The notes below the pieces were generated by a model that searched no databases, was not told where the DNA came from, and worked only from the letters and a program-made list of their open reading frames with translations. 64,000 nt of DNA from assembly GCF_044324785.1 (NCBI RefSeq), contig NZ_CP172127.1; one strand, 5' to 3'. This DNA comes from Escherichia coli. GTDB lineage: Bacteria; Pseudomonadota; Gammaproteobacteria; Enterobacterales; Enterobacteriaceae. This document shows, piece after piece, positions 11,116-26,437 of this stretch (within the stretch, counting starts at the first letter, position 1; the number at the start of each line of letters is the position of its first letter). The position numbers and the translations under genes were made by a program.

Positions 11116-11964
11116 ATGGGCCAGGTTGAACAGGTTTTTTCCCATGCGGTAAATCTGTTAATACCTGAACAGCAGCGACTGCTGACGTTACTGAGTGAGG
11201 ATTGTGATAACGCACCTAACAGTTGTCGTTTAGCACTGACACATTATGAAGACCTTTTTCACCCCGGTGAACAGGTCAATTTTAGCGGGTCTGGAATAAC
11301 TGTTGGAAATGATAAATGGATAGAAATAACCGGTTGTCAGATGTGGCGAATACCACGGTGGACATCTGATTCAGCAAGCCTTGCCAAAGTCGGCTGGCAG
11401 CATTGGGAAGAGTTTATCCGCCAACAACTAAGAAGCAACGACACATTATTTCTGTACCAGGGTGACAATCCATTTTATCAGGAAATTTCTCGCCAATTAC
11501 TCAACCGCCGAAAAAATTTGCTGAAGGCGTTGTGTACAGGAGAAAACATCACTGCGGCAGTCAACCAGTTAATTGGTCTTGGAATAGGGCTGACGCCATC
11601 ATCGGATGATTATTTAGTAGGTTTAAGCACTATTTTATTTATTCAAGGACATCCACTAAGGAAGTATAGATACGATTTCTTAGCAGCATTACAACTTGCA
11701 GGAAATAACATAACGCTTCTCAGCAAAATAACGTTAGAGGAAGCATTTAATCAGCGTTATCGGGAAAGAGTCGGACGGCTACTGAACCAATTTATTACTG
11801 AGCCACAACCCATTTCTACGCAATATGTTACTGACATAAAAAATATAGGCTCAAGTTCTGGATGCGACATGCTGTATGGCATGGCGGATGCCTGCGCCCT
11901 GAGCCACAGGTCCGGAGGTAATTATGTCAATCAGGATAGTTGTAAAAAAAAACACGTATTTTGA
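11116..11964 (+). CDS. Conserved hypothetical protein (YahE-like, DUF2877-type)
   Basis: 282-aa ORF; position between the ankyrin and FdrA-like genes mirrors the K-12 yahD-yahE-yahF order as recalled. Confidence 0.55.
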   Translation: MGQVEQVFSHAVNLLIPEQQRLLTLLSEDCDNAPNSCRLALTHYEDLFHPGEQVNFSGSGITVGNDKWIEITGCQMWRIPRWTSDSASLAKVGWQHWEEFIRQQLRSNDTLFLYQGDNPFYQEISRQLLNRRKNLLKALCTGENITAAVNQLIGLGIGLTPSSDDYLVGLSTILFIQGHPLRKYRYDFLAALQLAGNNITLLSKITLEEAFNQRYRERVGRLLNQFITEPQPISTQYVTDIKNIGSSSGCDMLYGMADACALSHRSGGNYVNQDSCKKKHVF

Positions 11965-24007: not shown

Positions 24008-24770
24008 GGTAATGACTCCAATTAGTTGAATTAGGAGTATAATAGCCACTTTTAAGGTTCTTTCATGGTCACAGTTAACCTTCATTGCTCCTGTTGCCAG
24101 TCCGTTCAGGTTTACCGTCACGGGAAGAACCCAAAGGACATGATCGATTTCGCTGCCGTGACTGTCATCGAGTGCTTCAGCTCACTTACCGTTACGAGGC
24201 CCGTAAACCGGGAGTTAAAGAGCAAATCACTGAAATGGCTTTCAACGGTGCCGGAGTTCGCGATACTGCCCGTACGCTGAAAATCGGCATTAATACTGTC
24301 ATCCGGACTTTAAAAAACTCTCGCCACGAAGAATAACGTCATACCCGGTCGCTCATGCTGATATGGCACTCATCTGCGAACTTGATGAGCAATGGAGTTT
24401 TGTCGGCAGTAAAGCGCGACAGCACTGGCTCTGGTACACGTACAACACGAAAACTGGTGGCGTTCTGGCCTACACTTTTGGCCTACGGACTGATTAAACC
24501 TGTCGTGAATTGCTGGCGCTGCTTGCCCTTTTACCATCGGTATGTTGACCACTGACGAATGGGGTAGTTACACCAGAGAGTTACCGAAGGAGAAGCATCT
24601 GACTGGTAAGATTTTTACTCAGCGCATTGAGCGCAACATCTACCTCTGAGAACCCGAATCAAACGTCTGGCCCGCAGAACTATCTGTTTCACGCGCTCTG
24701 TAGAACTTCATGAAAAAGTCATCGGTGCCTTTATCGAAAAATATATGTTCTACTAATTGGAGTCACCACC
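24008..24770 (+). mobile_element. Degenerate IS1-family element (divergent from canonical IS1, disrupted reading frames)
   Basis: IS1-like termini GGTAATGACTCCAA ... TTGGAGTCACCACC; InsA-like ...RFRCRDCHRVLQLTYRYEARKPGVKEQITEMAFNGAGVRDTARTLKIGINTVIRTLKN and InsB-like fragments split across frames. Confidence 0.7.
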
Positions 24771-25321
24771 TTCGTTTGTTTAAAGAACCTGCTGGTCCTG
24801 CCATTAATATTACCTGCTGATTGCTTCACATCCGGATTCCTCGCACTGCGCGCGGGTTATTGTTTCGTTTTCGGCCACGGGGTCGCCAGGGCTCTGTTTG
24901 CAGGCCATGATGGCCTGACCTGTACTGTTTCTCAGGCACTGAGATGTCCGTTTACGCCATTTGTTCCCGGATATCCTTAACCTCTGACGTTTGTTCCCTG
25001 CCCCTCTGTCTGATAACGAATACGCTCACAACGCACAGTACTGAACAATACCGACAACAACATGTCTTACATGAAATTCGCTGTAACATCCACCGGAAAA
25101 CATTTTCAGATATCGGATGAGGTACTACTTCCATTGACAGCGCGAGGTAACAAAATTGATGGTAACTCTGACCATTAACCGTAAACCGCAGGGTATTTTC
25201 AGTAAATCACCGGCAACGCCGCTGCAGAATAAAACGGACACAGCATACAAAATGAAGGCCGGTGACCAGATACCACAGTTGAACGATAAACAGAAACCTG
25301 CTGATAAAACACCGTGGCGAC

Positions 25322-25667
25322 ATGACAAAACGCCAGAGCAAAAACCGTAAGCGCATTATTCGTCTTGTGGAACTCTGGCCTGAGTCATTCAACCGGGAAA
25401 AAAACAAAACCACTTAAAGTGGGGATACCTGACGACCTGATACAGGATATCGCCATCCGAGAACTGGCGTTTGGCGCTGGTACATTACATGCAGCAGTGG
25501 CGTCTTATGTGCAGTCTCCGCGCTATTACCGTGCGTTAATAGCAGGTGGCGCCCGTTACAACCTGAACGGTCAGCCGTGCGGGGAAGTGACACCACAGGA
25601 ACAGAAAGAGGCAGAGACCCGTTTAATGATGCTGAATGACCGACGAAAAGACAGAAAACCTCGTTGA
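25322..25667 (+). pseudogene. FinO/ProQ-family RNA-chaperone-like gene interrupted by a frameshift in an A7 tract
   Basis: Frame 1 MTKRQSKNRKRIIRLVELWPESFNREKNKTT* stops at 25415-25417; the +1 frame continues ...KPLKVGIPDDLIQDIAIRELAFGAGTLHAAVASYVQSPRYYRALIAGGARYNLNGQPCGEVTPQE (FinO-like); junction at GGGAAAAAAACAAAACC (25395-25411). Confidence 0.55.
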
Positions 25668-25684
25668 CTGCACAACAGCGCTGT

Positions 25685-26437
25685 TCACTGAGCTGTAATC
25701 AATGTACAGCGCTGTACCGGGCGATGGGTAATACCGGTCACAACCGGTAACCCCAGAGACAATGCAACTGTTTTTAACGCAATATACTGGCCGGATGTAT
25801 CACCCCGGGCAGCCTGAAAACACCTTTCCACCCGGCATTGTCCGTCAGCACTTATCACCCGCCATGTCTGTTGCAATAAATCCACCCGTTGCGAACATTC
25901 TTCATCAACCGTGGCACTGACCCGTGGATGGCAAATGCTCGTCTGGCTGAGCAGCAACAGGCATCGCATTGTTGCTCCTCCATGTTGTTCCCGCAACCAG
26001 CGTAATACCACCGGTGGTGCTGGACTGGCCGTGTGATTACGTTCAGTAATACGCTCGTGCACCTGTCGGTAAAAGGAAGTACAGAATGCATGAATCTGTT
26101 GTCCGTTGATGTTTCCTTCTGCCGAATGGAGTGTGAAGTGGACGGCCAGCAGACGCGGCCAGTGATCCACCGCCTGCTGAATAAAACGCCGGATTTCCAC
26201 CGGCTCTGAAAGTACGGTTTCGGTTATTTGCACGATTTGATCCCCTTGAATGTTGCTGAACCGGTGTCGGTACGCAGGAAAGCACGCCGAGACCGGTACG
26301 ATGCCTGTTACAGCGAAGAACGAGGAATGACAGACGGGGGCAGCAGGTCGCCAGCACCAGGGACAGGGCTGATTTCCACAATACCAACGCTGGTATTTTG
26401 CACATTGCCAGCGTACCGGCATTACAACACGTTTCAT
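25685..26437 (-). CDS. Hypothetical protein, start overlapping the alpA stop
   Basis: ORF with ATGA overlap to alpA; cysteine/tryptophan-rich N-terminus (MKRVVMPVRWQCAKYQRWYCGNQPCPWCW); no family recognised. Confidence 0.4.
   Translation of the reverse strand: MKRVVMPVRWQCAKYQRWYCGNQPCPWCWRPAAPVCHSSFFAVTGIVPVSACFPAYRHRFSNIQGDQIVQITETVLSEPVEIRRFIQQAVDHWPRLLAVHFTLHSAEGNINGQQIHAFCTSFYRQVHERITERNHTASPAPPVVLRWLREQHGGATMRCLLLLSQTSICHPRVSATVDEECSQRVDLLQQTWRVISADGQCRVERCFQAARGDTSGQYIALKTVALSLGLPVVTGITHRPVQRCTLITAQ

Follow-up and report, generated by a model that had tools for sequence, protein, structure and literature searches.

In Escherichia coli, the global RNA-binding protein ProQ is encoded by the core genome and consists of an N-terminal FinO domain, a linker and a Tudor-like C-terminal domain. 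The plasmid protein FinO (F-like plasmids) and FopA/PcnR possess the same FinO/ProQ domain together with a disordered basic N-terminal extension, and are encoded on mobile elements. Such N-terminal extensions have been credited with RNA-chaperone activity, and a review of the family proposes for FinO-like genes that have integrated into chromosomes that they 'likely suffered erosion' (PMC9977716). Among the mutations that disrupt accessory genes are the single-base insertions in short homopolymeric runs that are inherited clonally or with an island and that PGAP flags as 'frameshifted' in RefSeq. In the contingency loci of Neisseria, Haemophilus and Campylobacter, indels in coding homopolymers likewise switch the reading frame.

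The gene described here lies in a window of 64,000 nucleotides, by which we mean the whole stretch of E. coli DNA that was analysed (contig NZ_CP172127.1). It is an accessory-genome paralogue of proQ whose product has neither the linker nor the Tudor-like C-terminal domain of ProQ. With plasmid FinO and FopA/PcnR it shares the FinO/ProQ domain, the disordered basic extension and the location on a mobile element and, by analogy, the island FinO-domain protein probably stabilises or matches a cognate structured RNA of its own element. It differs from the plasmid FinO-like genes in being chromosomal and in having been frameshifted twice. Nothing material sets it apart from the homopolymer-slippage pseudogenes flagged by PGAP, the only additional element being a substitution (A5CC to A6C) that first lengthened the run.

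Reading frames and domain structure of the island gene

The complete ProQ/FinO-family pseudogene, as delimited by the RefSeq span and tblastn, extends over three reading frames from 25159 to 25667 on the forward strand and corresponds to an ancestral gene of about 169 codons. On identical DNA of E. coli AR_0085, RefSeq/PGAP carries the label 'ProQ/FINO family protein; frameshifted', and the frameshifted span (L001, 6010-6518) equals 25159-25667 of the window. The feature is already annotated and is an ordinary kind of pseudogene. When the repaired long protein was aligned to the window by tblastn, residues 1-55 were found in frame 1 (25159-25323), residues 56-84 in frame 2 (25322-25408) and the remainder in frame 3, up to 25664.

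The first of these frames is an upstream ORF of 63 codons and a stop (25159-25350, forward strand; MVTLTINRKPQGIFSK...KTPWRHDKTPEQKP*), a remnant of the N-terminal extension that reads MVTLTINRKPQG...KTPWRH and then continues out of frame as DKTPEQKP*; its homologous part, 25159-25323, corresponds to the first 55 residues of the ancestral protein. It is cut off by the older of the two lesions, a 2-nt AT deletion at 25320-25325 (forward strand) that changed the intact TGGCGACATATGACA into TGGCGACATGACA, the junction having gone from CATATG to CATG at about 25322. From the ATG at 25322 a frame of 31 codons (25322-25417, forward strand; MTKRQSKNRKRIIRLVELWPESFNREKNKTT*) encodes helix 1 of the FinO domain (KNRKRIIRLVELWPESF) and ends at a premature TAA at 25415-25417. 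Within GGGAAAAAAAC of this frame lies the A7 homopolymer (25398-25404, forward strand), where a 1-nt insertion (A6C to A7C) followed an earlier C>A change (A5CC to A6C); the stop is reached three codons past the tract. The remaining FinO/ProQ domain occupies the +1 frame from 25404 to 25667 on the forward strand (TKPLKVGIPDDL...RKDRKPR*, stop at 25665-25667), with matches to Pfam PF04352 and to structures in the PDB.

An earlier sequence-only reading of this DNA had described the latter two frames, and in these respects it was right: the 5' frame does end three codons after the A7 tract (TAA at 25415-25417), the FinO-like body does continue in the +1 frame, to 25667, and the tract is the site of a 1-nt insertion, diverged relatives being in frame with A5CC. 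It had also foreseen that removal of one A would yield a fusion of about 115 aa; the product has 114 aa and exists as a natural E. coli protein (P0022), identical to the A-removed product of the window. Its two-frame picture was incomplete, as the third frame, the older 2-nt deletion and the start at 25159 had been missed, and the proper gene model should be the form of about 169 codons from 25159 rather than the 114-codon ORF.

Taken alone, the downstream frame matches PF04352 at 4.9e-17 (62.3 bits, against a curated threshold of 27 bits), while the 114-aa form obtained by removing one A matches at 3.1e-21 (75.8 bits) over profile positions 5-107 of 109. Since the fusion both extends and strengthens this match, the two frames are parts of one former gene. 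The 114-aa form also matches the solved structures of ProQ (5nb9, 1.8e-10), NMB1681 (3mw6, 1.9e-9), RocC (7rgu, 5.9e-8) and FinO (1dvo, 6.3e-7), in agreement with the FinO/ProQ assignment previously given to the downstream frame. Both the profile score above the cut-off and the homology to solved FinO-domain structures place the locus in the ProQ/FinO family. Its complete domain is not encoded by an uninterrupted coding sequence: the frame changes twice, at about 25322 and at 25398-25404, and a stop is reached too early, at 25415-25417. The locus is therefore a pseudogene of this family and not a functional member.

By sequence, the closest structural relative is the N-terminal domain of E. 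coli ProQ (5nb9), which aligns with residues 8-102 of the 114-aa form, taking in helix 1 and the PLK(I/V)GI motif; the codons of the tract align to the linker between these two elements. In an AF2 model of the long form, which is of low confidence (mean pLDDT only 57.5), residues 1-50 are disordered (pLDDT <50), helix 1 spans residues 58-73 and a floppy linker residues 74-91, so that the model seems to agree qualitatively with the 5nb9 alignment in placing the tract in the linker. The order of elements in this low-confidence model, namely helices at 58-73, 92-101, 107-119 and 122-129, a beta-hairpin at 132-143 and a helix at 146-166, is the one expected of the FinO-domain fold.

Intact homologues, allelic series and island setting

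A protein search identified intact homologues of about 165-180 aa with a start equivalent to 25159, among them P0002, P0005, P0007, P0009, P0026 and P0110. P0002 has 169 aa (...KQKPADKTPWRHMTKRQRKNRKR...REKPKPLKVG...) and P0110, of 165 aa, is present on at least 1000 contigs; P0002, P0005, P0007 and P0009 all read ...KTPWRHMTKRQ... without a break, and long homologues also occur in Salmonella, Shigella and Citrobacter. Because intact homologues of 165-180 aa are this numerous and include those of other species, the long form is ancestral and the 114-aa ORF already a truncation. The comparison also answers the question, raised with the initial description, whether separate genes might be the norm: the norm is the long in-frame form. 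The intact junction, CGACATATGACA, is carried by contigs L012, L016 and L022, of which L016 and L022 encode an uninterrupted 165-aa protein with an A5CC tract. The deleted junction has an exact match in 368 complete E. coli genomes; an AT-restored junction probe gave no exact match, which is a weak test as intact-junction alleles differ at neighbouring bases. The pN/pS ratio between two intact long forms is about 0.13, which argues that the island FinO gene is real and constrained; between the window and intact forms it amounts to 0.25-0.37, on small counts, and the A7 alleles differ too little from one another for dN/dS to be informative.

Loss of the N-terminal extension has occurred at least twice, once by the AT deletion seen here and once by a gain of 5 + 2 nt in L003 and L005. 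In these two loci (E. coli AHB29 and mip270_05) the uncoupling event affects the region equivalent to 25290-25325, the 7 nt gained creating an ATGA stop/start overlap and a 114-aa short form. A short form (P0085) is present on 408 contigs. As a separate observation, P0001 (168 aa, from one 1,253-nt Logan contig) has the upstream ORF rejoined to the FinO body through loss of one A from CAAAAAC, at the site equivalent to 25339-25343, in combination with an A6 tract (...KTPWRHDKTPEQNRKRIIRL...); this variant can be explained by a compensating frameshift or by an error in the reads.

At the tract itself, three states were found. Diverged relatives have A5CC and read EKPKPLKVG in frame; A6C, in P0022-P0025 and confirmed at the DNA level in L031-L038, L040 and L041, gives EKTKPLKVG, also in frame; and the A7C of the window is frameshifted. 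More generally, the frame is kept across this site in homologues of 60-92% identity, which have A5CC or another sequence there. The alleles are nested, as L016/L022 combine the long form with A5CC, L004 (strain 144) combines the AT deletion with A5CC in an intact ORF of 113 codons, P0022 combines the deletion with A6C and the window combines it with A7C, and for this reason the most parsimonious order of events would be long form, AT deletion, C>A (A6) and insertion of one A (A7). One metagenome contig (L026, CDYI01052375.1) carries A7C on another 5' background (GGCATATG junction, QRKNRKRINR), which implies recombination between allele lineages inside the gene.

Tract lengths were counted in 5,426 complete E. 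coli genomes by means of probes of 74-76 nt that have the tract at their centre. The lineage is present in 400 of these, with exact counts of 347 for A7, 2 for A6 and 0 for A8, and a metagenome pattern scan allowing any tract length returned 25 contigs (15 A7C, 10 A5CC and no A6C). The exact 601 nt of the window recur in at least 27 complete E. coli genomes. Among all public assemblies, the products of the A7 state comprise an 82-aa ORF with a GTG start on at least 1000 contigs and a 100-aa ORF on 63 contigs, the product of the upstream ORF is found on at least 1000 contigs, and the 114-aa product of the A6 state on 19. With the tract masked, at least 8 different haplotypes of 594 nt carry A7; its probe matches up to 5 places per genome, and its flanks differ: LacI/PTS in L001, IS3 in L002 and IS1/YadA-like in the window and L043. 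Of the earlier suggestion of a 'recent pseudogenisation', the pseudogenisation thus stands and the 'recent' does not, given these haplotypes, island contexts and copies. In all A7 alleles that were sampled (8 haplotypes and 22 loci, the window included), the FinO body is otherwise open once one A is removed, as is expected of a young pseudogene and without being a proof of death.

Three protein haplotypes exist in both the A7 and the A6 state: KDRKPR is A7 in the window and A6 in P0022, KARKPR is A7 in L002, L014 and L018 and A6 in P0024, and SPCYY is A7 in L019 and A6 in P0023. Since in-frame A6 alleles are found in both clades (KDRKPR and KARKPR), the tract has changed its length more than once or alleles have recombined, such events being rare at population scale. 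At the DNA level, the window's own haplotype and a neighbouring one each include one A6 locus (L034 and L035). As both come from a single assembly, GCA_027279515.1, they are probably homopolymer miscalls caused by under-calling, and they were rejected as a proof of reversion. The other A6 haplotypes are A6-only and 1-3 nt away from A7 haplotypes; at least one was found in a draft assembly of several contigs, and many short contigs likewise have the A6 protein. These alleles are probably genuine and of the ancestral type. The sole A9 record (L042, GCA_019431125.1; P0064) is in frame. It was not accepted as evidence of a hypervariable tract, given its many extra gaps, a second homopolymer defect and fragmented neighbouring genes. 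L034, L035 and L042, whose haplotypes otherwise have A7 throughout, are probably all long-read homopolymer miscalls that stand in protein databases as 'intact' ProQ/FinO proteins.

The locus sits in a decaying integrative island of the CP4 type, which contains genes for a YadA-like adhesin, a degenerate IS1, the ProQ/FinO protein, UCP030791, AlpA, inovirus-Gp2/YagK-YfjJ, a YeeP-like GTPase, DUF932, an antirestriction protein, RadC and YeeU/CbtA. Among the neighbours, the IS1, a transketolase fragment, cbtA and an antitoxin gene are annotated as pseudogenes. The degenerate IS1-family element lies directly upstream, at about 24065-24760 of the window (equivalent to 11080-12007 in L043); that of L043 bears the annotation 'frameshifted; internal stop', with a truncated transketolase gene behind it. 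Other strains (L001) have an intact LacI/PTS/transketolase sugar-uptake module upstream of the FinO gene instead. Other copies of the FinO gene have been broken independently, by an internal stop in L003, by frameshifts in the body in L007/L017 and L012, and by truncation in L023. Compared with the plasmid FinO-like proteins, the island protein reaches no more than about 40% identity with plasmid-borne homologues. A few records of the plasmid collection, including a 4.8-Mb replicon, match at 80-90%; every other homologue from a plasmid or phage is less than 60% identical and, among the matches listed, at most about 40%. A plasmid or phage origin was discarded, as close relatives lie almost exclusively in chromosomal islands.

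Immediately past the stop codon, where the pseudogene and the UCP030791 gene converge, an inverted repeat (25675-25715) has 17-nt arms that are 88% complementary, a 7-nt loop and two ACAGCGCTGT palindromes. It is without a T-run and was not called a terminator by a consensus scan; this candidate element could be a transcript-end hairpin of the kind that FinO-domain proteins bind. An Rfam search returned nothing relevant at the locus, and a sigma-70-like promoter was not found in 24700-26000.

Origin and fate of the A7 allele

Our preferred reading, to which we assign a probability of about 80%, is that the locus is a stably inherited island FinO/ProQ-domain pseudogene that was inactivated in two steps. 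Of this explanation, what was observed directly is the division of the gene over three frames, together with the series of alleles and their frequencies in the population. The ancestor would have encoded about 169 aa, with a disordered basic N-terminal extension (MVTLTINRKP...KTPWRH) preceding the FinO domain. Deletion of AT in CATATG would have uncoupled this extension, leaving an ORF of 114 aa with the internal Met (25322) as its start; a C>A substitution would then have lengthened the A5 run to A6 (EKPKP to EKTKP); and replication slippage, which we infer as the mutational mechanism, would have added one A to give A7, with a stop after helix 1 and the remaining domain in the +1 frame. The A7 allele is predicted to yield a 31-aa peptide with helix 1 alone and, because the frameshift severs helix 1 from the remaining domain, we infer a loss of function. 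This remaining domain has no good start: neither of the candidates, TTG 25365 and GTG 25420, is preceded by an evident Shine-Dalgarno sequence. Any function of the 114-aa short form is putative, as is the effect of the inserted A on it, and a low level of rescue by transcriptional or ribosomal slippage on A7, which may take place although no sign of it was seen, counts against the pseudogene reading. So do the otherwise open FinO body of all sampled A7 alleles and the in-frame A6 alleles in both clades.

In an alternative account, the upstream ORF and the FinO-domain ORF would be a functional, translationally coupled pair and the A7 event the sole lesion. That 114-aa short forms are common (P0085) and have arisen at least two times, by the AT deletion and by the 7-nt gain with its ATGA overlap in L003/L005, speaks for such a pair; against it, the proteins of the wider family, other species included, are all long (165-180 aa) and have an in-frame extension, chaperone activity in the family is attributed to such extensions (PMC9977716), PGAP treats all split forms as frameshifted, and the ATG at 25322 has no good Shine-Dalgarno sequence before it, as judged from the sequence. 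We therefore hold this account to be unlikely. Practically no weight remains for a sequencing or assembly error with A6 as the true state, which the sequence-only reading had offered as one option. Homopolymers are error-prone on some platforms and the A6 protein does exist in databases, but the exact 601 nt recur in at least 27 independent complete genomes, the A7 probe matches in 347, 15 independent metagenome contigs have A7 and its products are on at least 1000 contigs; errors appear to go the opposite way, as A6 miscalls. The same reading had also allowed for a phase-variable or frameshift-regulated gene, which the tract counts and the in-frame A5CC of diverged homologues argue against. 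A contingency gene that is toggled at a useful rate between A6 (ON) and A7 (OFF) by slipped-strand mispairing could draw on the presence of A6 and A7 on identical or near-identical 594-nt haplotypes in both clades, and on the complete genome NZ_CP033635.1, in which A6 and A7 are found in separate copies of the island. Known contingency loci usually have mononucleotide tracts of more than 7, and, unlike in these loci, the tract here is short, essentially monomorphic in the population (347 A7, 2 A6 and 0 A8 in complete genomes, 15 to 0 in metagenomes) and not conserved in homologues; moreover, the A6 cases that share A7 haplotypes (L034 and L035) come from one assembly, which suggests miscalls, the only A9 record is from a noisy assembly with another homopolymer defect, and the gene already has a second lesion, so that we give such a switch only a slim chance. 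The window itself contains longer homopolymers elsewhere, at 11944 (A9), 49166 (T10), 30541 (A8), and 40217 and 61907 (T8).

Recoding would instead make the frameshift productive, with programmed +1 ribosomal frameshifting or RNA-polymerase slippage providing a tuned, low level of FinO-domain protein. Within an A7 run tRNA-Lys can re-pair in +1, and RNA polymerase can slip on A/T runs; in addition, A7 is a widespread allele, and in every copy sampled the frame downstream of it is open. Nevertheless, the shift is not conserved, diverged homologues being in frame with A5CC, and divergence among the A7 alleles is too low for their conservation to count. The heptamer A_AAA_AAC is phased for -1, whereas the body needs +1, and in the -1 frame a stop is reached within 13 codons (...REKKQNHLKWGYLTT*); a stimulator peculiar to the A7 allele was not identified. 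A -1 programmed frameshift at A_AAA_AAC with the mini-hairpin behind it was rejected, given this early stop and given that the hairpin is ordinary coding sequence (KPLKVG), common to the in-frame alleles. Altogether, recoding strikes us as very improbable. We regard it as scarcely more plausible that the near-fixation of A7 (about 99% of the haplotype lineage) results from selection, rather than drift, or from trickle expression by slippage. If selection were at work, silencing an island FinO-domain protein that competes with the ProQ/FinO RNA networks of the host would be an advantage; if trickle expression were true, it would come from slippage of RNA polymerase or the ribosome on A7, and rare A6 revertants would keep the ON state available.

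Returning to the pseudogene reading, the A7 allele is a fixed, widely inherited pseudogene allele and neither an error nor a switch. The finding matters little beyond annotation hygiene, and offers a small, clean example of a substitution that lengthens a homopolymer and thereby predisposes it to a frameshift. The island FinO-domain family, which has intact members in many E. coli and seems to be uncharacterised in the literature consulted, may merit study, for which the A7 copy is not the starting place. As to the family as a whole, the locus illustrates the erosion of integrated FinO-like genes that has been proposed for it (PMC9977716).
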